Shown piece after piece: positions 2,587 through 23,781 of a DNA stretch of 64,000 nt. Each line of letters begins with the position of its first letter. Within the stretch, counting starts at the first letter, position 1. The stretch spans positions 158,987 through 222,986 of the forward strand of contig CAWBPM010000004.1 of the NCBI GenBank assembly GCA_963790825.1, given 5' to 3'. Below the pieces are notes generated by a model. It made no database searches. It saw nothing but the letters and a program-made list of their open reading frames with translations, and was not told the DNA's origin. The translations under genes were made by a program, and so were the position numbers. Source of the DNA: Candidatus Levyibacteriota bacterium. Lineage in GTDB: Bacteria > Patescibacteriota > Microgenomatia > Levybacterales > UBA12049.

Positions 2587-2587
2587 A

Positions 2588-3028
2588 TTATTGACATTGC
2601 ATAAATTCATTTCGTGTTCCTTGGTTATAGGTAAAACAAGTGGTAGGTTTCGAAGGCTGAGTAATGTATTTTATTACTGGCGTTGGGGTAGGTTGTGGAT
2701 TATCAATTTCATATTGTTGATAAGCTTCAAATGCGTTTGAACATTTATCTACTGCATTCCAGCTCATTGAAGAAAAGTCAATTATTTTAGATTTACCTTC
2801 TTTATATGCTTCAGCTGAGGCTATAGATTTAAGGTAATCTTTAACATCGTTTCCTGTGCATTTATAATTTTCTAAAGTATTATATTTTGAAAGCCATTCT
2901 TGAGTAGTTTTTCCTTGATATGTAAGTTTCGGCTGAAGGTATAGATACATAACTACTAAGCCAACAGCAAAACCTATTGCCAATGACCCAAAAAGACTAT
3001 GTTTTATATTTTTTAACTTAATTTTCAT
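2588..3028 (-). CDS. membrane-anchored hypothetical protein (paralogue of the next gene)
   Basis: N-terminal TM helix, then a YQGKTTQEWLSKYN domain also present in the 3025-3387 ORF. Confidence 0.45.
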   Translation of the reverse strand: MKIKLKNIKHSLFGSLAIGFAVGLVVMYLYLQPKLTYQGKTTQEWLSKYNTLENYKCTGNDVKDYLKSIASAEAYKEGKSKIIDFSSMSWNAVDKCSNAFEAYQQYEIDNPQPTPTPVIKYITQPSKPTTCFTYNQGTRNEFMQCQ

Positions 3029-8760: not shown

Positions 8761-9011
8761 ATAAACGCTCCTAAATCTGTGTATGTAAAATCTCTATGTT
8801 TTACTCCATATTTCTTCGCAATTACGGCAGTTTCTTTATTAATCCTGTCTAAAATCACGTTTATTTTTTGAACTCCTTTTTCATGGGAGATGGCATTATG
8901 CAACATGGCAAAATAGATGGCTCTTGCTTCTGCAAATAATTCTCTTAACTTGTATTTATTTTTAGTCATAGTGTATAATAAATATATTATAGGCTTTACT
9001 CCAAAGGTCAA
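8757..9011 (-). CDS. hypothetical small protein overlapping recombinase start (possible regulatory/directionality factor)
   Basis: ATGA overlap with the recombinase start; the true start may be the internal MTKNKYKL. Confidence 0.3.
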   Translation of the reverse strand: MTFGVKPIIYLLYTMTKNKYKLRELFAEARAIYFAMLHNAISHEKGVQKINVILDRINKETAVIAKKYGVKHRDFTYTDLGAFI

Positions 9012-9109
9012 GGCTGGCTTTATTTTTCTTGATATCTCATTCGTAAGAGCTAGAATTGAGTTTAGCTCTTACTATCAAATATCAATCAGAATTATTTCCA
9101 CTTAGTACA

Positions 9110-9649
9110 CTACCAATTGATTGCGTGACTATGGAAAATTCTGTCTAATATCGGATCATTGTCTACTACGCTAAGGCTGATAACCTCAATTCCATTTCGC
9201 TCAAAATCATCTTTTAACAGAAAATGCGTTATAACATTTCTTGTTAATCTATCCCAGCTTGTACATAAGATTCCTTGAGCCTCTTTCTTTTCAAGTCGAT
9301 GTAACATTTGCCAAAAGATTGGTCTTTTGTTACTAATACCCGAACCATATTCACTGATTACATCAACAATTTTAAAACCTGACTTTTCTTCTTCTACCAG
9401 ATCGTCTTCGTTAATAGGGTAAACTATAAGTTGTAAATCGTCTGGGTGAAGGGACGGTATGCCAAACTCTTTGCGGATCTCCTTTGCAAAGAAATCCATA
9501 ATTCCTGACTTAACATAAAGATCAAAATAGTCTTTAATAACTTTTTCTCTCCCTTGTTTGATAGGAGTTTTAGTAAGCGCTTGGTTCCATACGGATGCAA
9601 TTCTCCAAGATGAGTCATTCGGCTTAGAAGTATTCTTATCATTAAGCAT
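9110..9649 (-). CDS. resolvase-N-domain-like protein with substituted catalytic residues (likely inactive)
   Basis: Residues ~70-175 align with the serine-recombinase catalytic domain (YGSGISNKRPIFWQMLHRL ; GILCTSWDRLTRNV). The R-V-S motif position reads P-I-N. No HTH/recombinase domain. Confidence 0.5.
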   Translation of the reverse strand: MLNDKNTSKPNDSSWRIASVWNQALTKTPIKQGREKVIKDYFDLYVKSGIMDFFAKEIRKEFGIPSLHPDDLQLIVYPINEDDLVEEEKSGFKIVDVISEYGSGISNKRPIFWQMLHRLEKKEAQGILCTSWDRLTRNVITHFLLKDDFERNGIEVISLSVVDNDPILDRIFHSHAINW

Positions 9650-9791
9650 GTATATTTATTTTCATTCTCATTTTATTTTGTTAATTGTAACACCTATATA
9701 TACAAGATGGTCTATCATGCGTTTACATGAGGTATTTTTATAGCTACAAGTTAATAAAATTATGAAAATTAATAGACAACAGATAGTCTAT

Positions 9792-10019
9792 TTAAAAAGG
9801 GAATATATCAGAAGACTTTAAATCCAAGGCTTTTATAATTTTATAAAGCTTTTCAATGCTCGGATTCGCCAGTCCTTTCTCTATCTTGCCGTAATAGCTT
9901 CGATTTACTCCCGCTACTGCGGCTACGTCTACTTGCTCTAACTTTTTTTCTTTACGTGCCTTCTTTATATTTTCTCCAATTTCCTTTCTGATACCAATAG
10001 TGAAGTAATAACTAGTCAT
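9792..10019 (-). CDS. XRE-family helix-turn-helix transcriptional regulator
   Basis: IGIRKEIGENIKKARKEKKLEQVDVAAVAGVNRSYYGKIEKGLANPSIEKLYKIIKALDL is a classic Cro/C1-type HTH; start taken at the internal Met. Confidence 0.65.
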   Translation of the reverse strand: MTSYYFTIGIRKEIGENIKKARKEKKLEQVDVAAVAGVNRSYYGKIEKGLANPSIEKLYKIIKALDLKSSDIFPF

Positions 10020-10162
10020 ATAGCTATTTTCGATGAAAAAGAATTTGTTTGAGATGATATAGTGGGCAAATAACCTCAAGGCTAGCCTTGTTTTTTATAC
10101 CTAATTTAAAGTAAAATTACGATAGCTTATAGCACTATGAAAATACAAAGGAGGCGAACAAC

Positions 10163-10462
10163 ATGAAGCATAATACAAAAGACATAATTAAATTCGCAAT
10201 TATAGGAGGCATCACTGTCCCTTTAATCTTATATTTTGTAGGCTTTTTCTGGATGATAATTGGAGTACTATTTTGTATTTCGATAATTGGGATATTTTTG
10301 GGAATATTCTTTTTCTTAGTTGGCGGATGGTTTTTAATGATAACAACTAATTACTTGTTATTGTTTATTGTTTTAGGCGCAATCTCAGGGATAGTATTTA
10401 GGCCTATCTATCAAAACATGATAAACAAAATCCAACAAGCACGAACAAAGAAAAACAAATAG
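10163..10462 (+). CDS. small integral membrane protein, hypothetical
   Basis: Three predicted TM helices, Lys-rich C-terminus. Confidence 0.4.
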   Translation: MKHNTKDIIKFAIIGGITVPLILYFVGFFWMIIGVLFCISIIGIFLGIFFFLVGGWFLMITTNYLLLFIVLGAISGIVFRPIYQNMINKIQQARTKKNK

Positions 10463-10875
10463 CAGAAGTTAAAATGATTGTATTTGTTGCAATCGTTAAT
10501 ATAGTTTGATCCGAGTATAATGGTTATACTTCTTGACGTACATAGTCCTCCTGCTTCCTATTTTGCCCTTTTGGCGCATTTTATTTAGTAACAGGATGAA
10601 ATAGTAATCTTTGGCGTTTCAGTCTGGCGAAAGCTATGTTACGCAGTTTGGGTCTCCAGCAGTTATAAAACAAGTTACACAACTTGCACCAGCTACAAAT
10701 AACCTACATTTCTATTCACATGAGCTTGTGCTCGCAAAGATATGAGCCTACACAAAATGTAATTATTTTCACTAACATATATATATTTTTGAGTTCAAAA
10801 GGTAGTAGTGTAAGTTGTGCAAGCTATATAATATTGCTTATGGATAGACACACTCCTGCACAAAGAAGTTTTAAT

Positions 10876-11259
10876 ATGTCTCAGGTAAAGTCAAAGGATA
10901 CTAAACCTGAACTGTTAATGTTTGCATTACTTGAGGAATCTGGAATTAAGTTTGAAAAACATTATTCTGTTCCTGGCAAACCTGATATAGCGTTTCCCGA
11001 ATATAGAGTAGCGGTTTTTATTGATGGGGAATTTTGGCATGGTAAGGATTTTAAGCAAATTAAAGATACATTACAGCCCTTTTGGGTTAAAAAAATAGGT
11101 GATAACATAAAAAGAGACAGAAGAACAATGGATAAGCTGAGAGTTGAAGGGTGGCATATTTTGCATTTTTGGGATAAACAAGTTATTCGGAATCCTCGAA
11201 AATCGCTCAAACGTATTAGGCAATTTCTTGAGCGTGTACAAATTTCTGGTGGAAAGTAG
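10876..11259 (+). CDS. vsr: very-short-patch repair endonuclease Vsr
   Basis: SKDTKPE, VPGKPDIAFP, FIDGEFWHG, KIGDNIKRDRR, GWHILHFWD motifs. The six-frame ORF starts at 10684, but the Vsr domain begins at MSQVKSKDTKPE. Confidence 0.8.
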   Translation: MSQVKSKDTKPELLMFALLEESGIKFEKHYSVPGKPDIAFPEYRVAVFIDGEFWHGKDFKQIKDTLQPFWVKKIGDNIKRDRRTMDKLRVEGWHILHFWDKQVIRNPRKSLKRIRQFLERVQISGGK

Positions 11260-12346
11260 GAAGCAATTTTTCTGTTGTTTCCAGCTCACGCATTGAGTAC
11301 AAGAGTGCTTCAGCGGCTCTTTTAGCAAGTAACGGAGGTACAGCATTTCCGATCTGTTTGGCAATTTCTCCGAAGTTGCCTATGAACTTAAAAGAATCAG
11401 GAAATGTTTGGAGTCGGGCGGCTTCTCTTAAAGAAATTGCTCTGTCTTGTTCAGGATGCCCAAATCTTCCTTTTGAAATCATTCCGCAACCGCCTGTCAT
11501 TGTTGGTGAAGGATAATCCCATCTCATTCTTCCGTAAACATCTTTGTGTCCCTTAGTTGTTTTATGACACTCCAGGACTAATTCGTCTGGCCATGATGTT
11601 CTATCTCCGCCGTCGTGTGGTGTATAGATGATTCTTTTAAGATTGATTTCCGCCAGACTTGCTGAGACCTGCATTGGATCATTCTCATGTTTTTCGCCTG
11701 CCTTTATTGGAGGCAGGTCTTTAATTGCTTCTCGTACAGTAGCCCACGCGGGTAAGTTATCCGAAACTGAAGGGTCAGCATTAGTTTTCGGGGGGAATGA
11801 GAGTCTGATACTCGGATTGTTTGTACCCATAAGAACCAATCTTTTTCTTCTTTGGGGAACGCCATAATCAGCGGTATTTACTACATCGTAAATCGTTTGG
11901 TAACCGAGCTCACTAAGTCTCTGTAAAATCTGCACAAATAGAGGCTTTCCGATTCCTTTAGCAAGCCCTGGAACATTTTCTAATACAAAAGCGAGCGGCT
12001 TTATTTCCTCAACTATACGCAAAAATTCGTATATAAGTTTGTTTCGCGGATCAGTAAGTCGTTGAGAATTTCTTCTTGCAGTGGAAAACCCCTGACAAGG
12101 AGGACATGCAATAAGAACTACTTCTTTACCGTTTTTGAAACCTCCAGCTTTCAGAAGTTCTGTGCCTGATAGATAGGAAATGTCAGACGGAAATACTGTA
12201 CAACCTGGAAAGTTTACCTTGAATGATTCCGAGGCATTGCTATCAATATCAACGGCAACTTTAATGGAGTAGCCTGCCTGTTCGAATCCCAACGCTGAGC
12301 CTCCACAGCCTGAAAAAAGGTCAATTACGCCCATATTCCCTTTCAT
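11216..12346 (-). CDS. dcm: DNA (cytosine-5)-methyltransferase
   Basis: Motif I DLFSGCGG, motif IV PCQGFS, motif VI ENVPGL, C-terminal QIGNAVPP; 3' end convergent and overlapping with vsr. Confidence 0.85.
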   Translation of the reverse strand: MKGNMGVIDLFSGCGGSALGFEQAGYSIKVAVDIDSNASESFKVNFPGCTVFPSDISYLSGTELLKAGGFKNGKEVVLIACPPCQGFSTARRNSQRLTDPRNKLIYEFLRIVEEIKPLAFVLENVPGLAKGIGKPLFVQILQRLSELGYQTIYDVVNTADYGVPQRRKRLVLMGTNNPSIRLSFPPKTNADPSVSDNLPAWATVREAIKDLPPIKAGEKHENDPMQVSASLAEINLKRIIYTPHDGGDRTSWPDELVLECHKTTKGHKDVYGRMRWDYPSPTMTGGCGMISKGRFGHPEQDRAISLREAARLQTFPDSFKFIGNFGEIAKQIGNAVPPLLAKRAAEALLYSMRELETTEKLLPTFHQKFVHAQEIA

Positions 12347-12436: not shown

Positions 12437-12465
12437 TTGACTATATCTTAAAAATGTAGTATGAT
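12437..12465 (+). promoter_or_regulatory. sigma-70-type promoter candidate for the 12496-18319 operon
   Basis: TTGACT - 17 nt - TATGAT located ~30 nt upstream of the first ORF. Confidence 0.4.
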
Positions 12466-12495
12466 ACTCACCATGCTACGGCATAGATACATATT

Positions 12496-12723
12496 ATGAA
12501 AACCAAAGAAACAAAAAGTGCGTCTTTCAAAAGGCTTGCAGGAAACAGAACAAATAATGCAATCAGGAATATAAGACTCCTCGGTAATCTATCCAATAAG
12601 CATAACTATGCCTATACTGAGGAAGACTTCAAGCATATCTTCAGTAGTGTTGAGGAGGAACTGAAACTCGCAAAATCAAAATTTTTTGTATCGTTAAGTA
12701 AGAAGAAAAAATTTAAGCTCTAA
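12496..12723 (+). CDS. small basic hypothetical protein (75 aa), first gene of operon
   Basis: Lys/Arg-rich ORF directly after the promoter candidate. Confidence 0.4.
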   Translation: MKTKETKSASFKRLAGNRTNNAIRNIRLLGNLSNKHNYAYTEEDFKHIFSSVEEELKLAKSKFFVSLSKKKKFKL

Positions 12724-12764
12724 AAAGAAGTTAAACGCCAATTAGAATTAAAATAAATATAAAA

Positions 12765-13412
12765 ATGAATAAAAATATTACATCACTCAAACTAACCCGT
12801 TCGCAGAAGATTCTTATTTCGCTTTACCAAAGAGCCAACGGTACGAATAAGCAAATCAGGTTTGAGGACATTGCTGTTGCCGCTTTCAGGAATTTTCCCG
12901 CTGATTTTCAATTGAAAGGTTACCCGCAATATCCCGATACTGGAGACATTATCCATAAACCTTTATATAGCGAACTGAAAAAAGGCGGCTATGTATTGTC
13001 TGGAAATAAGTATTTTTCTCTTACTCCGAAAGGAGTAACCTATGCTAAAAAGTTACTCAGGGTCTCAGAGAAAGAACCTGTATCTGGTAAAGCGTCTTCA
13101 TTTATAAAACTAACAGCCGACCAACAAAAAGAACTTGATAGATTGAGAACTTCCCCAGCGGTTGAAATGTTCCTCAAGGGTAAAGAAACCGAAATTCTCG
13201 ATATAGATTTCTATTCTTATCTTGGTGTAACCGTAAGAACTAATAAAAATACTTTTTTGGGAAGATTATCAACAGTTGAAGATGCAATAAATGCAACTCA
13301 AGGAAAAAGCGATGAATTGTATACCAAATTAAGAGAGTGCCATAAATTTCTGCTTGCTAAATTTAATGAAAACATTGAATTTGTAAAACAAAGTAAAGGA
13401 GGAAACAGGTGA
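12765..13412 (+). CDS. hypothetical protein (215 aa)
   Basis: ORF overlapping the next gene by 4 nt (ATGA), indicating coupling; no recognised motif. Confidence 0.5.
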   Translation: MNKNITSLKLTRSQKILISLYQRANGTNKQIRFEDIAVAAFRNFPADFQLKGYPQYPDTGDIIHKPLYSELKKGGYVLSGNKYFSLTPKGVTYAKKLLRVSEKEPVSGKASSFIKLTADQQKELDRLRTSPAVEMFLKGKETEILDIDFYSYLGVTVRTNKNTFLGRLSTVEDAINATQGKSDELYTKLRECHKFLLAKFNENIEFVKQSKGGNR

Positions 13413-15256
13413 GTAATACTCAGCTTACAATTAAAGAAGAACCAAATGTCTTCGACGACAACATTCTGGATATCTGGGGAAATGCTTTCAACTTCAGTCA
13501 TGAAAAGGGACTTGCCGAATGGCTTAAAAACTCTGTAGATGCCTATCGTCGAGCGGGAGCACCAGATAAAGACCAGCATATTGTATTCCGCTTTACTGAT
13601 GGGAAAGATTCTTCAAATCCTCCAACAATAGAGTGTATTGATTTTGTGGGAATGGAATATTTGGATATTGAAAAAGCTCTTAAAAGATGGGGAGATCCAA
13701 ATGCGGCAAAAAGAGGGCAAAAGATAAAAGTATTTGGAGGCCATGGTAATGGGGGTAAGTTCTATATGCGTCAGATGTTCCAGCAATCATATTATTTTAC
13801 CTACAAGCAGGGTAAGCTTAATGTTTTCGGGTTTAATAAAGATAGAAAATACGGCTTTTCTCCTGATTACAAAGATAAAAAAGTTTCCTTGGAGGAGGCG
13901 TTTAAAGTTGCGGGCATAGACCGATCCATCATCCCTAATGCAATAATACGTCAACTTGAACATGGCGAGACGGGGTTTACGGTGGTCAAGGGTATAAGAC
14001 CAAAGAATTTAGTCGGCAACAAGCTCCCCGTTTATAGAATTTGTGACAAACTCAAGTATCATCCTCAGGCAAGAAGCCCTCTAAAGTTCAGCAATGTATC
14101 TGTTATTCATAATGATAAAATCTTGGTTAACAGCTTAAGAGTTGAAGCGATAGAACCACTTGAAGGATTCGAGGGTCCTTTCCTTTTTGATATTCCAGAT
14201 TTTCTTGATGCTATAGAAGGGGACAAGAAGATCAGCATGTCAAATAAAAAATATGGGAAAGGTAGTCTTGTACTTAAAACTTCTTCACTTCCATTCGGTC
14301 GCGGTGGAAGAAAGGCGGAGTTAAATTGTATTGATATAGCAGGAGAAATCGGAATAATAGCCTCTTACAGCATGGAACAGGTTGGATTTTTACAATACTT
14401 TCCTCAAGCTCAATACATCTATGGGGAATGCAGTTGTCCTATATTAGAAGATCCCGAATATGATTCTGTTCAGAATGATAGAGAAAAACTTGTTGAGAAT
14501 GAGAGAACTCAAGCATTACTACAGTGGATTGCAAGAAGAATAGATGAAGTAGCTGGAAAAATAGCGGATAAAGAAGCAAAAAAAGAAGAAGAAAACAGCA
14601 TGAAAGCATCGGATGAATTCAATAAAATTCTCAATAAGTGGAAAAATCAATTCATGTCGAAGTTGTTTGCAGAACTCTTTGGTGGATCAGGTAAGGGCGA
14701 CTCCACAGGTGGACTTGGAGACGATGGTTCTGGGGGCGGGGAAAATAAGGAATCCAAAACCAAGGGCGGTTTAGGTTCAGGATCTGGAAAAGGAGGGGGA
14801 GATGGAGAGGAGAAAAAGAAAGGCTCTGCCTTCCCAATGGTTCTGTTATCCGAGAGAGACAGAGACCCTGACTATCCAGACATCCCAGTCACTTTTTCAG
14901 AAAGACATCCAGCGGTGCAACAGCGACCCCAGGACGTTAGCAGAGGTATTTATTGGATAAACATGTCAAAACCAATGGCTAAAAAAATAAGCGAGAAATA
15001 TGGAGAAGACTCAATAGAGATGAGAAATTATATTTTTGAAAGATATGTAGACATTTTTACAAAAGAAACTATATGGAGAGAAGCTAAGAAACAAGGCGGA
15101 ACTCTCACACCAGAGCAAATTGACGACAGAATTACATATGTTGCTTCGCTTGTGTATGATACGGCAATGGTTGATTTAGAAGAAGCCCTTCTTGACAGAA
15201 AATATACTTCAAAAAAAGGTGACGAAGTACATAGTGAAAATGAACCAAAACAATAA
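13409..15256 (+). CDS. GHKL-superfamily (histidine-kinase/MORC/HSP90-like) ATPase with Gly-rich linker and C-terminal extension
   Basis: N-box EWLKNSVDA, G1 IDFVGM, G2 VFGGHGNGGKFY; low-complexity GGSGKGDSTGGLGDDGSGGGENK...GSGSGKGGGDGEE linker. Confidence 0.65.
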   Translation: MSNTQLTIKEEPNVFDDNILDIWGNAFNFSHEKGLAEWLKNSVDAYRRAGAPDKDQHIVFRFTDGKDSSNPPTIECIDFVGMEYLDIEKALKRWGDPNAAKRGQKIKVFGGHGNGGKFYMRQMFQQSYYFTYKQGKLNVFGFNKDRKYGFSPDYKDKKVSLEEAFKVAGIDRSIIPNAIIRQLEHGETGFTVVKGIRPKNLVGNKLPVYRICDKLKYHPQARSPLKFSNVSVIHNDKILVNSLRVEAIEPLEGFEGPFLFDIPDFLDAIEGDKKISMSNKKYGKGSLVLKTSSLPFGRGGRKAELNCIDIAGEIGIIASYSMEQVGFLQYFPQAQYIYGECSCPILEDPEYDSVQNDREKLVENERTQALLQWIARRIDEVAGKIADKEAKKEEENSMKASDEFNKILNKWKNQFMSKLFAELFGGSGKGDSTGGLGDDGSGGGENKESKTKGGLGSGSGKGGGDGEEKKKGSAFPMVLLSERDRDPDYPDIPVTFSERHPAVQQRPQDVSRGIYWINMSKPMAKKISEKYGEDSIEMRNYIFERYVDIFTKETIWREAKKQGGTLTPEQIDDRITYVASLVYDTAMVDLEEALLDRKYTSKKGDEVHSENEPKQ

Positions 15257-16691
15257 TGACCAATCAATCCATTCTCATCAGTTGCAAATGAACACTACAG
15301 TTCAGGGCAATTCTGGATTTGCTAACTTTATATCTTCCGAAGATATACAGCTTCCTCAAACTTTAACTCGTGATGACTCAATTGAAGTGCTTGGATTACC
15401 AGTCAAACTTGAAAATGCTCTGAAACTTAATGGAAACATTGCAACAGTAGGAGAGTTTTGTGATACATCAAAAGATAAACTAGGGAAAATTTGGACAATC
15501 GGACCGAAGTCAATAAAGTATATGCTCCAAGTACAATTTTTGATAAATGAGAAATTTGGAATCCTGAACAACAAAACAATAGATAAAGTTGTGCATGAAG
15601 AACCACCTCAATTAGTAAAGATAACTGAAAACGAACTCCTTACCTCTTTACTTAACAGATCAGGTAACAAAAGAACAATAGAAATTGTTTCCAAACGGTA
15701 TGGCTTAATGAATGGCGAGAAGCAGACCCTTGAAGAAATCGGAGATAGTTACGGAGTAACAAGAGAAAGAATACGACAAGTCCAGAAAAAAGCATTAAAC
15801 AGAATGAAACATCCGATGAGCTCAATAAAGGAACAATTAGTAGAACTAATCGAGGAAGTTATTTTTAGAAACGGTGGCATACTTTCAGCTGAGGAAGCGG
15901 ATTTAGAAATTCCTAAAGCTCTCGGCGGAATAAATGATGATGGGAGTTCAATTCTTGATTTACTTTGTGACTTAGATTGGATTCAGAACTACAGAATAGG
16001 AGACATTGTAATATATGCTCCTAAATTTGGCGGTATTTCTCTCTCTAAATTATCAGAAAGAATTATTTCGCTTGTTAAATCTGAAAATCTAGGTCTTGAT
16101 GTAGAATCTATAATAAGAAGAAATGGTTTATTTATTAAGATTAAAGACGAGCGATTTGACCCTCACGTTTTTGTACTCAGATATTGTCGTATTGACCCAC
16201 GTATTGAAGAAATCAACTTAACATCCAATCGAACGGAAACTCTTTTCAGGTACTATACATCTTCGGGGCACTTCGCCAAAAAAGGTTGGGTCGTTCTTAT
16301 GTCCAGAATACTGGAAGAAGTACAGACGCCTTTACACTATACGGAGATTGCCAATAAAGTTAATGACTTAATGGGAAACTCGGAAAACCAACTGGATGCA
16401 AGAAGGGCTCATTCGATTCTTATCGAAGACGAGGCTTTTGCTCATAGTGGCATACATGGAACATACGGTCTTACATCATGGGGTTTGCGAAAAGAAACTA
16501 CCCCAGAACTGATCGAAGAATGTCTCCGTAAAGCGGGATTTCCACTTCATTGGAAACAAATATACAACTATGTCAGTAAATATAAAGATTCTAAGCCTGG
16601 TAGCATTACCAGTGTTCTTGAAACCAATAGAATGTTTAAGAAAGTTGACAGCGGAATATATTGGTTGACAGAGAATAAAAATTCACATTAA
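15240..16691 (+). CDS. multi-HTH DNA-binding protein: alpha-CTD-like HhH + sigma-70 region-4 HTH + two HARE-HTH-like domains
   Basis: IEVLGLPVKLENALKLNGNIATVGEF...IGPKSIKYM (RNAP alpha-CTD pattern). [35 protein letters not shown] (sigma-70 region 4, nearly the same motif as the rpoD end at 200-320). PLHYTEIANKV...GTYGLTSW and PLHWKQIYNYV...GIYWLTE (HARE-HTH pattern). Start at MNQNN overlaps the upstream gene by 17 nt. Confidence 0.6.
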   Translation: MNQNNNDQSIHSHQLQMNTTVQGNSGFANFISSEDIQLPQTLTRDDSIEVLGLPVKLENALKLNGNIATVGEFCDTSKDKLGKIWTIGPKSIKYMLQVQFLINEKFGILNNKTIDKVVHEEPPQLVKITENELLTSLLNRSGNKRTIEIVSKRYGLMNGEKQTLEEIGDSYGVTRERIRQVQKKALNRMKHPMSSIKEQLVELIEEVIFRNGGILSAEEADLEIPKALGGINDDGSSILDLLCDLDWIQNYRIGDIVIYAPKFGGISLSKLSERIISLVKSENLGLDVESIIRRNGLFIKIKDERFDPHVFVLRYCRIDPRIEEINLTSNRTETLFRYYTSSGHFAKKGWVVLMSRILEEVQTPLHYTEIANKVNDLMGNSENQLDARRAHSILIEDEAFAHSGIHGTYGLTSWGLRKETTPELIEECLRKAGFPLHWKQIYNYVSKYKDSKPGSITSVLETNRMFKKVDSGIYWLTENKNSH

Positions 16692-16696
16692 AGACA

Positions 16697-18319
16697 GTGA
16701 GAGTAAAGAGCGAAAGCTTTACGCTTACTGGTTCAACTTATATAAATAATAGTATGAGAATAAAGAAAATACATCTAAAAAATTTCAAAAGATTTGATAA
16801 TCTAACAATAGATTTAGGTAATGACCCTAAAAAAATCATAGCTCTTGTTGGTCCAAATGGTTGTGGCAAAAGCTCCGTATTTGATGCTTTTGAAGAAAAA
16901 TTAAAAGATTATAAGGGGGCTAATGTCACTGAGCTTGCCTCTTTCTTTTCTAAATTATGGCACTCCAACGATCCTGCTCTCAAATCAGAAACTTATAATA
17001 AAGGAGAATCAATAAAAATACATAGAGAAGATGATAGTGAGAATTTTGATAAAAAAAGCTTTACTATTAGATCTGCATATAGGTTTACGCCTAAATTATC
17101 TGTTGATAGCGTTAGAACAAAACCTAGTATTATTGAAAATAAAGAAAGACCAGGTAGTAGTATTGCTATAGATTCTCAGTTGAGTGATAACTACGAAAGA
17201 TTACTGGGTAAACTAATCAATGAATTTTTTAATGGTACAAAAACAGGACAAGAAACTCGTGAAGAAATTCTAGGGAAGATTAACGCTATTTTAGAGAATA
17301 TATTGGATATAAAAATATCTAATTTAGGGGATGTTACCGCTGGTAAAGGGCAGCTATACTTTCTGAAAGAAAGCTCTAAGGATTTTCCATTTGAGAATTT
17401 GTCTTCTGGGGAGAAAGAAGTCGTGGATATCATTGTTGACTTGATTATTAAATCTTCAGACTATAACAACACTGTTTATTGCATAGATGAACCAGAGTTA
17501 CACCTAAATACTGCAATACAACGAAAACTACTTATTGAAGTCGAAAAACTTATACCCGACAACTGTCAATTATGGGTTGCTACTCATAGCATAGGTTTCT
17601 TAAGAGCCCTTCAAACTGACTTGAGGGATAAAACACAAGTTTTGGATTTCTCCGAGAAAGATTATTTTAACGGGGCAAAAACAATCATTCCAATCAATCA
17701 AACACGAAGAAATTGGCAACGTATCTTTAAAACTGCCCTAGAAGACTTAACTGGACTTATTGCACCCGAAAAAATTATTTATTGTGAAGGCAGAGCCGAT
17801 CCAACTTCTCAGGGAAACGAACAAGGATTAGATGCAACAGTTTATAATGAAATTTTTGAAGAAACTAACCCAGAAACATTATTTATATCAGCTGGTGGAG
17901 GGATACCACATATAAACCATTCTGCTATTGCTCTCCAAATTCTGTCAAAAGCATTCCAAGGAGTAGAGCTCTTTTTATTAAAAGATAAAGATGAAAAAAC
18001 CGATGCTGAGAGAACTACATTTATTAGCTCTACACCAGAAAATAAGATGTTAACAAGGCGAGAAATAGAGAACTATTTATTTGATATTGAAATTTTGAAA
18101 AACTACAGTAGTAAGAATGGTAGAACACTAGATGAGCAAAAATACTCGCAGATTGTTATAGATATTAAACAACAAGATTTGAAGCTAGGTCAAATACTAC
18201 AGAGCTTACAGCATTTGTGTGGAGCAAGTGGAAGTATAAGTGATTTCAAAATTGAACTTGCGAAATATATTATTCCTGAAACTTCAGTCTATTCCGAACT
18301 GAAGGGATGTATTTTTTAG
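16697..18319 (+). CDS. OLD-family / PARIS-like ABC-ATPase fused to a short Toprim (DUF4435-like) nuclease domain
   Basis: Walker A GPNGCGKSS, Walker B VYCIDEPELHL, H-loop WVATHS. C-terminal IIYCEGRADP (Toprim Glu) and LLKDKDE (DxD), ending REIENYLFD. Confidence 0.6.
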   Translation: MRVKSESFTLTGSTYINNSMRIKKIHLKNFKRFDNLTIDLGNDPKKIIALVGPNGCGKSSVFDAFEEKLKDYKGANVTELASFFSKLWHSNDPALKSETYNKGESIKIHREDDSENFDKKSFTIRSAYRFTPKLSVDSVRTKPSIIENKERPGSSIAIDSQLSDNYERLLGKLINEFFNGTKTGQETREEILGKINAILENILDIKISNLGDVTAGKGQLYFLKESSKDFPFENLSSGEKEVVDIIVDLIIKSSDYNNTVYCIDEPELHLNTAIQRKLLIEVEKLIPDNCQLWVATHSIGFLRALQTDLRDKTQVLDFSEKDYFNGAKTIIPINQTRRNWQRIFKTALEDLTGLIAPEKIIYCEGRADPTSQGNEQGLDATVYNEIFEETNPETLFISAGGGIPHINHSAIALQILSKAFQGVELFLLKDKDEKTDAERTTFISSTPENKMLTRREIENYLFDIEILKNYSSKNGRTLDEQKYSQIVIDIKQQDLKLGQILQSLQHLCGASGSISDFKIELAKYIIPETSVYSELKGCIF

Positions 18320-18423
18320 AATTAGCTTGGACTGTTATAATCAAACAACTTTCCGAGGACAGCGAGTAGCTTGCGGTTGAGAAAAAGTTTTGCGAGGAAC
18401 ACCAATCCTCGGAAAGGTTAAAA

Positions 18424-18585
18424 ATGAGAAAGGTTGTTAAACCTAATATCATCTATAAGTACGTTGGCGATGAATCTCCTGAAAAGAAGAAAGAGGCAGA
18501 AAGAATAATACAGGATTTCTATTTCTCATTGTTTGATGAAACCGCAAGAAGGATCAGGGAAAAGCAAAAATCCAAAAAGAAATGA
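18424..18585 (+). CDS. small hypothetical protein (53 aa), possible last gene of operon
   Basis: GGAAAGG Shine-Dalgarno-like sequence before the ATG; lies between the nuclease gene and the terminator. Confidence 0.3.
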   Translation: MRKVVKPNIIYKYVGDESPEKKKEAERIIQDFYFSLFDETARRIREKQKSKKK

Positions 18586-18709
18586 GTTTTGCATTCAGTA
18601 GTCTTGCTAGAATTTTGTTTACCTATTTACTATACTTGAATTACCTTTTGAGTTTTTTACGTGCAAGATGTTTTTGGTTTGCAAGGAGCGAACTCGTCCG
18701 TAAAAAGGA

Positions 18710-18746
18710 AACCGAGACCCTAGCCAGTCTCGGTTTATTATTTTTT
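18710..18746 (+). terminator. rho-independent terminator
   Basis: GAAACCGAGACCC-tagcca-GTCTCGGTTT hairpin followed by TTATTATTTTTT. Confidence 0.55.
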
Positions 18747-18870: not shown

Positions 18871-18983
18871 TTTCTTAATTTCCATCCATCTTTGTCTTAG
18901 CTCTCCTATATACCTTAGATCCTGAAAAGACTGGATAATTGAAGTGAAATCCAAGGGTATAATAAGACGAGGCTCGGGGAGCT
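18871..18983 (+). repeat. ~115-nt intergenic repeat family, copy A
   Basis: Shares ...ctttgtcttagct..cctatata.cttag.tcctgaaaaga...tataataa.a.gaggctcggggagct with copies at 21166, 23164 and 31905. Confidence 0.5.
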
Positions 18984-19109: not shown

Positions 19110-19451
19110 TTATAAAGGTTTAGATAAAAAGGCGAATACGAATAATATAGACAGGAGGATTATTAGTACAAAAATTCCCACAACTATTGCTCGATTGTTA
19201 TGGTGGTCTCCGTTCTTAGTTTGAACAATAAGCTTAGTAAATGTATGGTTCCAAAATAAATTTAGTGGGTAGGCTATGACAAAAATCGAAAAGGACAGCA
19301 TTAATAAGGAGGCAATTATAAAACCAATAATAGATGAAGCAAAATTTGAGAAAAGAGTTGACCAGAAATATGGAAAAATAACGAAAAAACCAATATAGAG
19401 TGATAATGCTAAAATAACTAGATTGCCTGCCCAATAGATAATCTTTTTCAT
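19110..19451 (-). CDS. small integral membrane protein, hypothetical
   Basis: Highly hydrophobic 113-aa ORF. Confidence 0.35.
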   Translation of the reverse strand: MKKIIYWAGNLVILALSLYIGFFVIFPYFWSTLFSNFASSIIGFIIASLLMLSFSIFVIAYPLNLFWNHTFTKLIVQTKNGDHHNNRAIVVGIFVLIILLSILFVFAFLSKPL

Positions 19452-19522: not shown

Positions 19523-19558
19523 ATACCAGTTCCCCACATATTCAACCAGAGGGAGCAA
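19523..19558 (+). repeat. 36-bp perfect direct repeat, copy 1 (ataccagttccccacatattcaaccagagggagcaa)
   Basis: Identical 36-mer recurs at 23746-23781 in the same orientation. Confidence 0.7.
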
Positions 19559-19628: not shown

Positions 19629-20657
19629 ATGGCAAGTGATTTTAAACGAGTCAGATACATACGACCAAAACTCTCCAAATTGAGCTATCATATCGAGATG
19701 AAGGCTCTTGAGGATGCAATGGCTTGTGAGTTATCAGATGTTGCTGCTTTTAGGATGCATGTGATCACCCATTACTACAAATATGGACTGCGTGCCACTC
19801 TTGATGCTTTTAATCTGAAACAAAGTACTTTCTATGACTGGAAGTGGGCATATGAGAGAAACAATCGGCGTGTCATTGCACTTGTTCCAAAATCAACACA
19901 ACCAAAAACAACAAGAGTAATGAAAACTGATCCACAGATAATTGAATTCATTAAGCAGATGCGAGTGGGACATGGGAACATAGGAAAAGAAATGATCAAA
20001 CCATTTGTGGATGCTTATTGCAAAAAACTTGGTATCAATACCATAGGACCAACTACTATTGGAAAGATCATCAAAAGGAAGAACTTTACCTTTGAGAAGA
20101 AGGTTTACCCACAAAAACAGCAAAACAGGTTCAAAAAGCTAAGAGTCAGAAAGTCTCCAAAGGTGACAAGTCCCGGATTTATCCAAATGGATTCCATAGT
20201 GGTATATATCAACTATGAGAAACATTTGTTTATGAGTGTGATTGATATTTTTACTAAATATGCACATGTCGTATATGTGGATACAATTTCTTCAGCAAAT
20301 GCAAAAAGAGTTTTCCAAGAGTTTATAGAGCTTAATCCGACATCCATTCATACAGTGCAAACAGACAATGGCTCTGAATTTCTCAAATCTTTCCATGCAT
20401 ATTTAGAAGAGCAACAGATTAAGCACCAATTCATTTATCCCAGAATGCCAAAGATCAATTCCTACATCGAGAGGTTTAACAGAACTATTCAAGAAGAGTT
20501 TATTCTCAGAAATGATGAGATTTATTACGATATTCCAGCTATGAACAGGAAACTCACCAAATATCTTTTCTGGTACAATTACCAAAGACCTCACAGGTCA
20601 CTTCATTACATGTCGCCTATGTCATTTATTGAAACCAATCTTCCGAAATGTGGGTGA
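19629..20657 (+). CDS. IS481-family-like DDE transposase (HTH + rve integrase core)
   Basis: Single 342-aa ORF with ...VQTDNGSEF...YNYQRPHRSL integrase-core motifs. Confidence 0.75.
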   Translation: MASDFKRVRYIRPKLSKLSYHIEMKALEDAMACELSDVAAFRMHVITHYYKYGLRATLDAFNLKQSTFYDWKWAYERNNRRVIALVPKSTQPKTTRVMKTDPQIIEFIKQMRVGHGNIGKEMIKPFVDAYCKKLGINTIGPTTIGKIIKRKNFTFEKKVYPQKQQNRFKKLRVRKSPKVTSPGFIQMDSIVVYINYEKHLFMSVIDIFTKYAHVVYVDTISSANAKRVFQEFIELNPTSIHTVQTDNGSEFLKSFHAYLEEQQIKHQFIYPRMPKINSYIERFNRTIQEEFILRNDEIYYDIPAMNRKLTKYLFWYNYQRPHRSLHYMSPMSFIETNLPKCG

Positions 20658-20704: not shown

Positions 20705-21115
20705 ATGGATCAAGTTATAAAAATTGGCTGTGAAATATTCGTTATCAAAGAAGGCAAACTCTTATTTGGTATAAGAAAAAATATTTATGGAGATGGTTCA
20801 TGGGGATTACCTGGCGGACATTTAGAGTATGGAGAAAAATTAGTTGATGCTGCAAAGAGAGAGTTGGAGGAAGAAACCGGGATTAAAAATGTAGACCTTA
20901 TATTAACCAATATTGTTGATGACCCACGAGAAGACCAGCATTATCTTCATGTTGCGTTTAAGTTAGATAACTATAAAGGGGATGTTGAACTAAAAGAGCC
21001 AGAAAAGTGTGAGGAATGGAAATTTTTTCCTCTTGATAGTTTGCCTGAAAACATTTTTATTGGGCACAGGAAAATTATAGGTACTTTTCTTAAAGATAAG
21101 CTTTATTTGTATTAA
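20705..21115 (+). CDS. NUDIX hydrolase
   Basis: Nudix box GGHLEYGEKLVDAAKRELEEETGI. Confidence 0.8.
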   Translation: MDQVIKIGCEIFVIKEGKLLFGIRKNIYGDGSWGLPGGHLEYGEKLVDAAKRELEEETGIKNVDLILTNIVDDPREDQHYLHVAFKLDNYKGDVELKEPEKCEEWKFFPLDSLPENIFIGHRKIIGTFLKDKLYLY

Positions 21116-21165
21116 TTAAGGGATTGACTTAACATCGTCTACTCTAAATTAAGTTGCAAGTGCAG

Positions 21166-21282
21166 AATTTAATTGTAATTTCTTTATTTCCTCCCACCTT
21201 TGCCTCAATTCCCCGATATGGCCTAGATTCTGGAAGGATTCTATTACTTTTGCAGTTATAATAATCTCAGGCTCGGGGAGCT
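21166..21282 (+). repeat. ~115-nt intergenic repeat family, copy B
   Basis: aatttaattgtaatttcttt...cctttgcctcaattcc...ttttgcagttataataatctcaggctcggggagct; closest to copy C. Confidence 0.55.
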
Positions 21283-21418: not shown

Positions 21419-22237
21419 TTAATTCTTACTTCTATCTAATCTCCAAGTTGATGAGACAAATCTTGGAATCCCTAGAATTCCTCTCTTTTTATAGGTTAAC
21501 TCTCGGAAAGTATGCATATCTTCCATTCTAAAACTAAAAATAACCTCTCTGAAATTTCTTGATAATGCCAGTTCTAAAGCTAATGGAGCAGAGGAAATTC
21601 TATTGAAATTAACCCTCGGATCAGTAAGTATTTCCTCGTCCAAACAAGTGGGCGTTTCTGAGTAAATTCTATGCTTGCCTTTTCCCTCTGTTTCGGCTGT
21701 TTCGCCCGGCTTTACTTTTGACAGTAAATCTAACGCCATGTCTTTCCCAAATAATATTTGCTCCCCCTGCGATAGCGGTAGATCGCGCCCTGAACTGCCA
21801 GGACCCTGAGATAAGGCTGATAAAGTAATTTTACAGGGCTCTTCGGGGTCAGCCAAATTACCGAAATCCAGTAAAGGCGAAAAGGGTTCATTGATACGCA
21901 GAGAAATATTATTATGACGCATAAAATACAACTCACGTTCACCTACCGTAAGATGTGGATGAACAACATGCTCCATTCGTCTTTGTGCACTATAAATAAT
22001 TGAAAGTGCTCTCCACCCATATTTTGAAATTATTCTAATTGGTTCCTGCCTTAAGGCATTTTCTTCCGGGGTAGGTCTAAAGGGTCCATCTGTAGCCATA
22101 AATATACTCCTTTTTGGAACAGCAGCGGAATAATACTCTCTGGGAAACAAATTGTCAAATAGGTGTGGAACTGCAAGACATGGGTTACGCTCAGATTTTA
22201 GCTTTTTCTCTAAATCTTTCATACGGTGTTTGTCCAT
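21419..22237 (-). CDS. hypothetical protein, GC-richer than surroundings, overlapping transposase 3' end
   Basis: 272-aa ORF at roughly 48% GC in a ~35% GC context; no recognised motif. Confidence 0.35.
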   Translation of the reverse strand: MDKHRMKDLEKKLKSERNPCLAVPHLFDNLFPREYYSAAVPKRSIFMATDGPFRPTPEENALRQEPIRIISKYGWRALSIIYSAQRRMEHVVHPHLTVGERELYFMRHNNISLRINEPFSPLLDFGNLADPEEPCKITLSALSQGPGSSGRDLPLSQGEQILFGKDMALDLLSKVKPGETAETEGKGKHRIYSETPTCLDEEILTDPRVNFNRISSAPLALELALSRNFREVIFSFRMEDMHTFRELTYKKRGILGIPRFVSSTWRLDRSKN

Positions 22238-23108
22238 TTAATGCCGAATGTGGTCTTTCAAAGTTGTAGAAGTTTTCCCACTCCTGCAGTTTTTCATTAA
22301 ATAGCTTGGTATCATCAATAACTACTCCTTCTAACATACGATAGAACTCCTCTTCGTCAATTCTGTGAGATCGTTCAACTTTTCCATTAAGCCTTGGTGT
22401 TCTTGGTCTAATATACACATGATTAATTCCTTTATCAAGGATGTGCCAATGGAATTGGCCTTGAAACTCTGATCCGTTATCTGTCTGAATTACTTCGGTA
22501 TGAAACGGTAGTCGAGAAAGAACATAATCAACAAACTGTATTGCAGTTAACTGGTTGTTTCTCTCATATATTTTTAACACCCTGAGTCTTGTACAATCAT
22601 CAATTGCAGTGAATTGATAATATCTTTGCCTTGTATCTTTTATTCGCTCAAGAAACTTTACATCCACTTGTATGCTGTGGCCCGGTTGAGGCTTTTCATA
22701 CCGTTTCCACCGCTCTGTGTGCTTTTTGTATCGTTGATTTGCTGGGAGTAAATTCATATTTAATCTTTTAAGCATTTTCCAAATACTTGATCTGTTAATG
22801 ACAATTCCATGATATCGTTCTAAGTACATCTTTATGCGTAGTGGACCAAAATGATAGGTTTGTCTTAAGTACACAACTTTAGCAACAATTTCAACTGGCG
22901 TTGCCATAGGGCTATTGTGTGGGCGTCTTGATTTATCTCGTAATCCTTCTTCACCCTCTTCTTGGTAACGTTTAAGCCACTCATAATACGCTGTCCTACC
23001 GATTCCGTAATACCTACAGGTTTTTGCTACATTGTGTGTAACTTCTTCCATGTGTCGTAGAACTCCCAGTCGCCATTTTTGCAATCGTTTTATTTCTTGT
23101 TCAGACAT
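22191..23108 (-). CDS. IS481-family DDE transposase
   Basis: N-terminal HTH (TCRYYGIGRTAYYEWLKRY), rve core ...IQTDNGSEFQGQ...YNFERPHSAL. Confidence 0.8.
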   Translation of the reverse strand: MSEQEIKRLQKWRLGVLRHMEEVTHNVAKTCRYYGIGRTAYYEWLKRYQEEGEEGLRDKSRRPHNSPMATPVEIVAKVVYLRQTYHFGPLRIKMYLERYHGIVINRSSIWKMLKRLNMNLLPANQRYKKHTERWKRYEKPQPGHSIQVDVKFLERIKDTRQRYYQFTAIDDCTRLRVLKIYERNNQLTAIQFVDYVLSRLPFHTEVIQTDNGSEFQGQFHWHILDKGINHVYIRPRTPRLNGKVERSHRIDEEEFYRMLEGVVIDDTKLFNEKLQEWENFYNFERPHSALNGQTPYERFREKAKI

Positions 23109-23163
23109 AGTCGATATTTTAACACTAAAAAGTGTTCGCTATGTCCTGCAGTTTTATAATAGG

Positions 23164-23279
23164 ATTTAATTGTAATTTCTTAATCTCTCCCCACCTTTGC
23201 CTCAGTTCTCCAATGTAGCTCAAGTTTTGAAAAGAATCTATTATTTTTGCCGTTATAATAATTCTAAGCTCGAGGAGCT
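23164..23279 (+). repeat. ~115-nt intergenic repeat family, copy C
   Basis: gatttaattgtaatttcttaatctctccccacctttgcctcagttctcc...ttttgccgttataataattctaagctcgaggagct. Confidence 0.55.
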
Positions 23280-23745: not shown

Positions 23746-23781
23746 ATACCAGTTCCCCACATATTCAACCAGAGGGAGCAA
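23746..23781 (+). repeat. 36-bp perfect direct repeat, copy 2
   Basis: Identical to 19523-19558. Confidence 0.7.

Follow-up and report, generated by a model that had tools for sequence, protein, structure and literature searches.

Do the tightly spaced genes next to a Dcm methyltransferase gene and a vsr gene in the window (the whole stretch of 64,000 nucleotides analysed here, from a Candidatus Levyibacteriota bacterium) form a single defence system? The initial annotation took the five to six genes as one system. We lean towards a different reading, namely two juxtaposed elements on an island rich in serine recombinases and IS elements, one an R-M-like module with a GHKL ATPase and the other a PARIS/OLD-like gene. 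The delimitation itself, i.e., genes A to D conserved together with Dcm and Vsr and gene E separate from them, is highly probable.

Layout of the locus

Co-directional genes, tightly spaced or overlapping, between a promoter-like site and a terminator had been described initially, and all of these are present at the following coordinates:

10840..11259, + strand: vsr, very-short-patch T:G mismatch endonuclease (Pfam Vsr, 94.6 bits, full-length match)
11216..12346, - strand: dcm, C-5 cytosine DNA methyltransferase (Pfam DNA_methylase, 229.5 bits)
12437..12465, + strand: promoter-like TTGACT-17-TATGAT (consensus match 10/12)
12496..12723, + strand: gene A, 75-aa basic protein, pI 10.2
12765..13412, + strand: gene B, 215 aa, winged-helix protein
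13409..15256, + strand: gene C, 615 aa, MORC/MutL-like GHKL+S5 ATPase (predicted fold)
15240..16691, + strand: gene D, 483 aa from ATG, predicted multi-HTH DNA-binding protein
16754..18319, + strand: gene E, 521 aa from ATG, ABC/SMC-type ATPase fused to a Toprim-like domain
18424..18585, + strand: small ORF of 53 aa, between E and the terminator-like hairpin
18709..18736, no strand assigned: bidirectional intrinsic-terminator-like hairpin (10-11 bp stem, 5 G-C pairs, T-runs on both strands)

The first element, at about 10.84-16.69 kb, consists of vsr and dcm, which converge with a 44 nt overlap, and the co-directional genes A, B, C and D; it is defined by gene set, folds and co-inheritance. 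The dcm gene is divergent from gene A, and the 149-nt intergenic region holds the promoter-like site, of a kind that occurs at chance level in this AT-rich region (35 observed versus 32.1 +/- 5.6 expected by shuffling). The ORFs of B and C overlap by 4 nt and those of C and D by 17 nt, with the D ORF opening at TTG 15192, upstream of ATG 15240. A gap of 62 nt separates D from E, whose ORF opens at GTG 16697 and whose ATG start is common to all homologues. The signal scan found no terminator-like site between D and E, the first one 3' of D being at 18709. The 53-aa ORF had no library match and is doubtful as a real gene; it is not conserved, since of the 87 loci just L001, the copy on the window's own contig, has it. 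The island carries two large serine recombinases, one resolvase fragment and two rve transposases, in line with its initial description as recombinase/IS-rich.

The unit conserved across related loci and the position of gene E

The neighbourhood set comprised 87 C-family loci (81 non-redundant, 48 untruncated) spanning at least 10 phyla, all relatives listed being MAGs. The pair of GHKL ATPase and multi-HTH protein is conserved as a neighbourhood across these genomes, a point that the initial annotation had proposed to check. The core, judged from the 81 non-redundant loci, is B plus C, usually accompanied by D, Dcm, A and Vsr; among the 87 loci B was labelled in 83, D in 68, Dcm in 64, A in 48, Vsr in 41 and E in one. 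B has an N-terminal winged-helix domain, putatively DNA-binding, and a C-terminal helical domain; wherever labelled (83/87) it adjoins C, of which it is an obligate partner. On an Ensifer plasmid, a distant C homologue is preceded by a 75-aa protein with 46% identity to A. The gene set is kept in three different gene orders, and D went undetected in about a quarter of the loci.

Dcm lies within the contiguous block in 56 of the 81 non-redundant and 32 of the 48 untruncated loci, and Vsr in 33 and 18, respectively (the 41/87 given above for Vsr being a jackhmmer label anywhere in the locus). The pairwise distances of C correlate with those of B, Dcm, D and Vsr (rho 0.50-0.70; 0.58 for Dcm), in part owing to common phylogeny. 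The smallest loci are B-C-Dcm-Vsr or B-C with a Dcm::Vsr fusion, and such fusions adjoin B-C in L039 and L041. Given this block membership, the distance tracking and the fusions, Dcm and Vsr are part of the cassette and not the "orphans" they were first called. In 24 of the 81 non-redundant loci Dcm is absent within 7 kb, and other DNA methylases account for only 2 of the 99 neighbouring proteins there; methylation is thus not obligatory in cis. A large C subfamily is found with N6/N4 methylases, while an Ignavibacteria variant combines D-B-C with an HNH protein and has neither Dcm nor Vsr.

Gene E matches AAA_21 (5.9e-19), AAA_15 and SMC_N in Pfam, and among PADLOC models AriAB best (1e-37, residues 210-470), followed by AriA (1e-22). 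Walker A GxxGxGKS, DEPE, E345 and D411xD413 (521-aa numbering) are invariant in its family. PDB sequence searches reached just the ATPase head of PtuA, Rad50 and OLD, and the Pfam domain DUF4435 (AriB) is absent from the window protein and present in 2 of 25 relatives. Of the ATPase-Toprim assignment made initially, the ATPase half therefore stands; the Toprim half is backed by the AriAB match and the invariant Glu and DxD, but not by DUF4435. More than 3,700 proteins make up the E family, and homologues occur elsewhere alone, in a recombinase island, or once between hsdS and hsdR of a Type I R-M operon; one carries the JGI name OLD-family endonuclease.

Would E nevertheless be the dedicated nuclease effector of a single A-E system, in which detection of the invader falls to the GHKL/multi-HTH module and the 3' slot is a variable-effector position? 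E is co-directional with D at short distance with no terminator-like site before 18709, and elsewhere nuclease- or toxin-type genes are tightly coupled to D in the same slot: a GmrSD-like gene at -1 nt, the Shedu gene sduA at 9 nt, a Fic gene at 8 or -4 nt and a trypsin-like one at 12 nt. RelA/SpoT-like or other genes occupy the slot in further loci. Moreover, searches including Pfam, NCBIfam, PADLOC and a profile of the C-terminal domain of C against PDB revealed no nuclease domain in A-D, nor any cognate restriction endonuclease for Dcm and Vsr there, leaving the core without a recognisable nuclease. However, 86 of the 87 loci are without E, the exception being the window's own contig, and the slot is mostly empty or filled by an opposite-strand Dcm. 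The E family and the other slot genes also match stand-alone defence models (SduA, SoFic/PDC-S04, HEC-05 for the GmrSD-like gene and PDC-S33 among the single-gene ones) and occur in unrelated contexts. We thus consider a single system improbable. Judged from its sequence, E is a putatively autonomous PARIS/OLD-like cargo gene outside the conserved module. This second element (16.75-18.32 kb) may on balance be a self-sufficient defence gene, a fused ABC-ATPase-Toprim in a variable slot. Its co-transcription and functional coupling with D are possible, since the D-E spacing is tight and no terminator lies between.

The proteins of the cassette and its possible role

Gene C had been called a GHKL ATPase, and the predicted fold bears this out, whereas no profile library detects it: nothing was found at E<=0.1 in Pfam, NCBIfam, PADLOC or PHROGs, HATPase_c and HATPase_c_3 included. 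The AlphaFold (AF2) model (pLDDT 78.7) places the GHKL+S5 region at roughly residues 1-360; after it come a helix of 60 residues, a disordered Gly-rich linker (426-472) and a C-terminal domain (CTD; 473-600) that is conserved and whose profile had no match in PDB. Foldseek against PDB returned 159 matches at E<=1e-3, the best being MORC2 (E 1.5e-10) and MORC3, then TRAP1/Hsp90, SMCHD1, GyrB and MutL, each with probability 1.00. The Bergerat motifs show little or no variation across 30 sequences (E37-N41-D44, with D44 in at least 90%; D78xxG81M82; G110GHGNGGK117; T191). According to the model, C is a predicted GHKL+S5 ATPase closest in fold to MORC2/MORC3. An assignment as a MutL orthologue was rejected, the nearest fold being that of MORC.

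A MutL-like ATPase beside Dcm and Vsr could also belong to a 5mC maintenance and repair unit outside defence, in which an orphan Dcm on a mobile element, serving anti-restriction or epigenetic control, brings along Vsr and a C protein that, with B, stimulates Vsr nicking in the manner of MutL in E. coli. The composition of the smallest loci agrees with this, as do the MutL-like layout of C (NTD, flexible linker, CTD), the presence of MutL among its fold matches, and a 754-aa C relative beside an HhH-GPD glycosylase gene (weak match). The functional interaction of MutL with Vsr is itself established (cited in PMC2292703, ref. 18). On the other hand, many loci have Dcm without Vsr or neither of them, and both the Ignavibacteria D-B-C pairs with HNH and the subfamily that goes with N6/N4 methylases are at odds with such a unit. 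It also leaves unexplained D with its sigma-4, alpha-CTD and HARE modules, the recurrent defence cargo and the recombinase flanks. We therefore regard repair as quite unlikely.

Gene D opens with an RNAP alpha-CTD-like HhH, followed by a sigma-70 region 4 HTH; a middle region then leads to a tandem pair of winged helices resembling HARE-HTH. The first two modules, as initially annotated, pass the Pfam gathering scores (RNA_pol_A_CTD 28.5 bits versus a cut-off of 23.8; Sigma70_r4 46.7 versus 24.1). The HARE-HTH assignment is clear in relatives (20 of 58, best E 9.5e-11), and the two C-terminal modules cross-match, i.e., are mutually homologous, but the window protein itself stays below threshold (17.7 versus 25.9 bits). 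Across the 58 family members, sigma-4 is present in all, alpha-CTD in 32, HARE-HTH in 20 and DnaA_C in 19. HARE-HTH has been proposed to sense cytosine modification (PMC11037411, citing Aravind and Iyer 2012).

Each domain of D is an RNAP-subunit module, and D matches the NCBIfam RNAP delta model (27.8 bits, cut-off 42), so D might dock on RNAP or promoters and, with the MORC-like ATPase, silence or activate genes depending on the 5mC state. It would then serve epigenetic transcription control by a mobile element rather than immunity, and eukaryotic MORCs are indeed methylation-linked silencers (PMC2292703). However, alpha-CTD and HARE are dispensable (26 of the 58 D proteins are without alpha-CTD, and 19 have a DnaA_C HTH), and some loci are without D. 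In addition, sigma-4-like HTHs are plain DNA binders in MzaA, BrxL and DndH, all of them defence proteins (PMC12839542; PMC10853773). Such a role appears very unlikely to us.

An R-M-like or defence role of the vsr-dcm-ABCD cassette is probable. We are inclined, with some reserve, to regard it as a methylation-linked R-M-like module, BREX-like in its logic, arranged around a dimeric MORC/MutL-type clamp. Dcm would mark resident DNA with 5mC and Vsr would remove the T:G mismatches arising from 5mC deamination. B, through its winged helix, and D, through its HTHs, may bind DNA and signal which site or methylation state is present, the HARE-HTH modules of D being proposed cytosine-modification readers, and may load or activate C on unmarked DNA. 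The C dimer, held by the CTD, would close its N-terminal ATPase gates upon ATP binding and entrap or compact the unmarked DNA, so that replication or transcription is blocked or the DNA is passed to a nuclease. That nuclease might be Vsr, the HNH protein found in place of Dcm in Ignavibacteria, or a 3'-slot product. That the clamp acts on unmethylated DNA is a tentative suggestion, of which we are rather doubtful.

We consider it unlikely that A-B-C-D plus Dcm make up a nuclease-free immune or silencing system, with methylation readers guiding a MORC-like clamp to unmethylated incoming DNA. If true, the methylation-coupled MORC silencing of eukaryotes would have its counterpart, and possibly its evolutionary source, in prokaryotes, and nuclease-free MORC-like silencing would be a common feature of CPR/Patescibacteria and of other uncultured phyla. 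The novelty would be lower if Aravind and Iyer (2012) already reported the B-C-Dcm-Vsr neighbourhood.

Comparison with known systems

The known systems share different parts of the locus. The MZA anti-phage system, mzaABCDE, was reportedly described by Gao et al. in Science in 2020, and its names appear in NCBIfam NF041931 and PADLOC PDLC02203. Its defence operon likewise encodes a sigma-70-region-4 protein (MzaA) together with a GHKL ATPase that is MutL-like. However, D matches only the sigma-4 part of MzaA (52 bits versus a cut-off of 800, confined to about 55 residues), and C matches no PADLOC model, MzaB included. Bacterial chimeras with RNAP alpha and sigma features plus HARE-HTH are said to have been reported by Aravind and Iyer in 2012 (Cell Cycle 11:119), and D resembles these in architecture, with its HARE-HTH score in the window protein below the cut-off.

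Only E resembles PARIS (AriA/AriB, fused AriAB) and class 1 OLD, in that a Toprim-like domain with conserved Glu and DxD follows its ABC/SMC-type ATPase; its family, too, is found within a Type I R-M operon, while the scarcity of DUF4435 (AriB) noted above sets E apart from PARIS. Further hallmarks of PARIS are its triggering by anti-restriction proteins of phages and the cleavage of tRNA. The very-short-patch repair of E. coli, with MutL stimulation, shares Dcm and Vsr beside a MutL-like GHKL protein; in contrast, C is no MutL orthologue, A, B and D are additional, and the distribution is mobile and patchy.

In BREX, PglW has an alpha-CTD followed by a wHTH array, and auxiliary GmrSD or Shedu effectors are appended (PMC12839542), the latter also a likeness to our slot. 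The cassette further shares with BREX (type 2 PglW segment, BrxA; PMC12839542) the combination of methyltransferase, ATPase and (w)HTH array with no obvious dedicated nuclease. The sole match to BREX models in PADLOC and NCBIfam was partial, residues 56-247 of D matching the DNA-binding segment of PglW at 792-989 (E 3.7e-7). Unlike BREX, the cassette is without PglX, PglZ, BrxC and BrxL; its methylase is a C5 Dcm instead of N6 PglX, and its ATPase is GHKL instead of AAA+/STAND.

The closest theme is that of the paraMORC/MORC operons, in which a GHKL+S5 ATPase goes with a cytosine methylase and a Vsr-family endonuclease in mobile 'hotspots', with a proposed DNA-looping or clamp role (PMC2292703). 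The cassette differs in having neither an SF2 helicase nor a REase, TIR or HKD partner; its partners are instead the winged-helix protein, the 75-aa basic protein and the sigma-4/alpha-CTD/HARE protein. A comparison of signatures covering MORC proper and paraMORC2-5 also sets C apart: the MORC S5 signature GhXhhpXXRhl was matched by 0 of 30 C-family sequences in a regular-expression search, paraMORC2 ExxxH and paraMORC5 HxH were not found in the family, and C had no Pfam match to a C-terminal RecB-like REase (paraMORC3), to TIR (paraMORC4) or of HATPase_c type. The initial proposal of an undescribed defence module holds insofar as a conserved module of the defence-island type is present and no model in Pfam, NCBIfam (June 2026), PADLOC v2 or PHROGs covers A, B or C, but not with regard to the theme. 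The cassette is not unprecedented in kind, because R-M-like operons with GHKL, Dcm-type cytosine methylase and Vsr were described by Iyer, Abhiman and Aravind in 2008 (PMC2292703). It is a variant of this paraMORC, methylase and Vsr theme, with MZA as the nearest named system.

Gene layout and mobile surroundings of the cassette

ORF calling in the window bore out the co-directional, closely packed ORFs A to E, which the initial annotation had regarded as one defence operon.

Features of the cassette region in the window
1126-2610 and 7153-8760: large serine recombinases
9110-9649: resolvase fragment
10840-11259, + strand: vsr
11216-12346, - strand: dcm
12437-12465: promoter-like TTGACT-17-TATGAT (signal scan)
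12496-12723, + strand: A, basic protein of 75 aa, pI 10.2 (ORF call)
12765-13412, + strand: B, winged-helix protein of 215 aa (ORF call)
13409-15256, + strand: C, MORC/MutL-like GHKL ATPase of 615 aa (ORF call)
15240-16691, + strand: D, multi-HTH protein of 483 aa (ORF call; ATG start 17 nt inside the 3' end of C)
16754-18319, + strand: E, ABC-ATPase/Toprim-like protein of 521 aa (ATG chosen to fit the N-terminus MxIKxxxLKxFKRF common to all homologues)
18424-18585, + strand: 53-aa ORF (ORF call)
18709-18736: strong bidirectional hairpin (signal scan)
19629-20657 and 22191-23108: rve transposases

The promoter and terminator claimed for these genes were both located, although promoter-like sites overall stood at chance level in the signal scan (35 observed vs 32.1 +/- 5.6 by chance, i.e., no excess). 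The mobile character ascribed to the region was upheld by its flanks, which hold the serine recombinases, the resolvase fragment and the rve transposases. Large serine recombinases flank the cassette (vsr, dcm and A to D) in the window as well as in the Woesebacteria locus L002 (2949-4460 and 15910-17520), which suggests that in Microgenomates the entire module is carried by an integrative element of the serine-recombinase type.

A search for island boundaries via repeats turned up only IS-associated repeats, downstream in the window, and no tRNA gene as integration site was found within the 64 kb. A 36-nt perfect direct repeat (19523-19558 and 23746-23781) encloses both rve genes and a NUDIX gene (20705-21115), while a 119-nt repeat (79% identity; 21164-21282 and 23161-23279) and a third copy of 26 nt (18958-18983) resemble IS ends. 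Small, strongly hydrophobic ORFs lie on either side of the cassette region (10163-10462, 99 aa; 19110-19451, 113 aa) and probably encode membrane proteins of the island.

Conservation and variants of the gene set

ORFs were called in 87 loci carrying a C-family gene (81 non-redundant) and labelled by jackhmmer. B was present in 83 of the 87, D in 68, Dcm in 64, A in 48 and Vsr in 41, while E was found in one, the window's own contig. In the 48 untruncated non-redundant loci the contiguous block comprised B in 44, D in 34, Dcm in 32, A in 25 and Vsr in 18. Three gene orders recur, namely Vsr> Dcm< A B C D, A B C D Dcm< (Vsr) and D B C Dcm Vsr, and B and C are adjacent or overlapping in every case. 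Furthermore, for each of B, Dcm, D and Vsr the pairwise distances tend to rise with the corresponding C distances (rho 0.50-0.70). The identities of Dcm and Vsr are clear-cut (Pfam), and a Dcm::Vsr fusion is the partner in Planctomycetes loci and probably in the Myxococcales locus L042. Based on the locus counts, gene orders, distance correlation and fusions, we conclude with high confidence that the cassette includes Dcm and Vsr but excludes E; the "orphan" status initially given to the Dcm/Vsr pair is thus abandoned. The fused polypeptides of 562-571 aa, a C5 methyltransferase with a C-terminal Vsr, lie directly 3' of B-C in Tepidisphaeraceae and Planctomycetaceae MAGs (L039, 11887-13593; L041, 11867-13555), and the Archangiaceae locus (L042) has a similar Dcm of 571 aa.

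Several loci depart from this arrangement. No Dcm occurs within 7 kb in 24 of the 81 non-redundant loci, and the idea of an always-linked methylase was ruled out, as N6_N4 MTases make up just 2 of the 99 neighbouring proteins there. In Ignavibacteria, D-B-C is followed by an HNH protein of 244-246 aa, without Dcm. A subfamily of C of 740-800 aa has a Big_2 domain where the Gly-rich linker stands in the window's C,; the next gene is B-like (about 225 aa), and in two cases an N6_N4 methylase lies nearby. A conjugative plasmid of Ensifer adhaerens, the sole relative found in a cultured organism, encodes A-like (46% identity), C-like and B-like proteins. These variants indicate that the invariant core is B and C, often with A, and that methylase linkage is frequent, not obligatory.

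With regard to the individual variants, the gene right after C in L075, L077 and L081 carries a C-terminal HNH motif and an uncharacterised N-terminal domain, possibly a modified-DNA reader, in place of Dcm/Vsr. The Big_2 subfamily, together with some proteins that match the C-terminal domain of C alone (profile about 437-600), is represented by P0391, P0400, P0459, P0474 and P0481 and by loci L092, L093 and L094. Of the proteins with the C-terminal match alone, three have Big_2 upstream and two nothing recognisable; an Ig-like domain of this type is odd in a DNA-associated ATPase. The triad of the genetically tractable Ensifer (7641-10966 of locus L091, 59.2-62.5 kb of plasmid NZ_CP118613.1) comprises proteins of 75 aa (A-like), 800 aa (C-like) and 229 aa (B-like), all annotated as hypothetical, with an N6_N4 methylase and a McrB-like AAA_5 ATPase upstream. 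In a Verrucomicrobiota locus (L038, 1-1040), the gene before B-C-Dcm-Vsr resembles, by eye, a PAPS-reductase/DndC-type enzyme.

Gene E and the position after D

The ATPase half of the ATPase-Toprim assignment of E held, Pfam placing it among ABC/SMC-type ATPases. As for the Toprim half, the fused PARIS protein AriAB fits best among the PADLOC models (1e-37) and a Glu (YCEG) and a DxD are invariant, yet Pfam DUF4435 is nearly silent in the family; the E profile against PDB sequences reached the ATPase head and nothing beyond. The family exceeds 3,700 members, and three homologues lie in unrelated contexts: one stands by itself among glycosyltransferase genes, a second belongs to an island with a serine recombinase, and a third separates hsdS from hsdR in a Type I R-M operon. 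In other loci D is directly followed by a gene for one of several protein types (GmrSD-like with DUF262+HEPN, the Shedu nuclease SduA, Fic, RelA/SpoT-like, or a trypsin-like protease paired with an uncharacterised partner), or the slot is empty; several of these proteins match PADLOC single-gene defence models (SduA, SoFic/PDC-S04, HEC-05, PDC-S33). E may be co-transcribed with A-D, and the close packing would suit a single A-E system in which E is the effector, which we nevertheless judge unlikely given the single locus in which E follows D. E is instead read as an autonomous PARIS/OLD-like cargo gene.

Tightly coupled pairs also occupy this 3' slot: a Trypsin_2 protein with a 457-458-aa partner in L002 (13276-15920), and a 274/313-aa protein with a Cys-rich 537/555-aa protein in L009 and L010. 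The partners had no match in Pfam, and the 458-aa and 537-aa proteins none in PADLOC; we list these genes as candidates for new defence cargo. Since single-gene defence modules turn up again and again at the 3' end of such operons, the position could be mined, e.g., for the 458-aa, 274-aa and 537-aa genes.

Protein families, possible mechanism and relation to known systems

The GHKL assignment of C was confirmed by its predicted fold, while searches of Pfam, PADLOC, NCBIfam and PHROGs gave no match and PDB sequences nothing meaningful. Its AlphaFold model is confident (pLDDT 78.7, alignment of 30 homologues), and the Bergerat motifs are invariant (E37/N41/D44, D78xxGM, GGHGNGGK, T191). GHKL and S5 domains (about 1-360) are followed by a 60-residue helix, a disordered Gly-rich linker (426-472) and a conserved C-terminal domain (473-600) whose profile had no match among PDB sequences (best E 0.34). 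In the model this organisation is MutL-like, with a gate at the N-terminus, a flexible linker and a C-terminal domain. A Dcm-Vsr repair cassette with C as MutL analogue could be envisaged on these grounds, albeit with low probability. Among PDB structures the model comes closest to MORC2 (E 1.5e-10) and MORC3, with Hsp90/TRAP1, SMCHD1, GyrB and MutL next. The MORC S5 signature and those of paraMORC2 and paraMORC5 are absent from C, and membership in MORC, paraMORC2-5, MZA or BREX was ruled out on the tested features (signatures; PADLOC and NCBIfam models).

The C family is small, sharply bounded and separate from other GHKLs. Its homologues (>900) are all unnamed; the profile search of 1.84 billion proteins gave 466 representatives (50% identity), and 187 of the 185,579 species genomes contain relatives. 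The 80 listed loci are all MAGs, from CPR/Patescibacteria, Acidobacteria, Verrucomicrobia, Planctomycetes, Nitrospirae, Ignavibacteria, Solirubrobacterales, Myxococcales and Elusimicrobia. The phage collection yielded no match to C and the plasmids one distant match, Ensifer.

For B, fold searches gave generic winged-helix matches only; a MukF/kleisin-like fold was not retained, the weak Foldseek matches (probability 0.75-0.87, E>0.01) not being counted as evidence. D had been described as alpha-CTD, sigma-4 and two HARE modules. RNA_pol_A_CTD and Sigma70_r4 pass the Pfam thresholds and the two C-terminal modules are mutually homologous, whereas HARE-HTH is sub-threshold in the window protein and detected in 20/58 relatives (best E 9.5e-11). 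Within the family, sigma-4 is found in 58/58, alpha-CTD in 32/58 and a DnaA_C HTH in 19/58. The RNAP-like domains would accord with an RNAP-directed epigenetic regulator, in our opinion the least probable alternative. No nuclease was recognisable in A-D by library, profile and fold searches.

Starting from the demonstrated gene content, folds and co-inheritance of the cassette, a mechanism may be sketched. Dcm would mark self DNA and Vsr would repair deamination damage, while B and D may act as DNA binders that signal the site or its methylation state; HARE-HTH has been proposed as a sensor of cytosine modifications (PMC11037411, citing Aravind & Iyer 2012). C would be a MORC/MutL-type dimeric clamp loaded onto unmarked DNA, which it might block or hand over for cleavage, with Vsr, the HNH protein and a cargo nuclease as candidates. 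This scheme follows the model put forward for paraMORC R-M systems in PMC2292703, and we regard a clamp on unmethylated DNA as a tentative proposal, rather doubtful but ahead of its rivals.

In this bacterial cassette 5mC is linked with a MORC-like ATPase, together with putative modification readers and with no evident nuclease, and this link bears on MORC-type ATPase action and on the origin of eukaryotic MORC silencing. Its families lack any annotation-library model and are nearly confined to uncultured lineages with poorly known defence repertoires. In the MZA system (Gao et al. 2020) a sigma-like protein is reportedly combined with a MutL-like ATPase, and alpha/sigma/HARE chimeras are said to have been described by Aravind & Iyer in 2012. 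Our literature search, with the 2012 HARE-HTH paper and the 2008 MORC supplement outside its scope, found no paper on this gene set. What is new is the unmodelled A/B/C family set and its fixed partnership, prevalent in uncultured phyla; the novelty would be lesser if either source draws the neighbourhood. That a GHKL ATPase can go together with Dcm and Vsr was already described in 2008 (PMC2292703). Finally, a survey of BREX reported auxiliary GmrSD or Shedu effectors attached to a methylation-based system (PMC12839542), and BREX and the cassette are alike in that defence genes are appended to a methylation-linked system.
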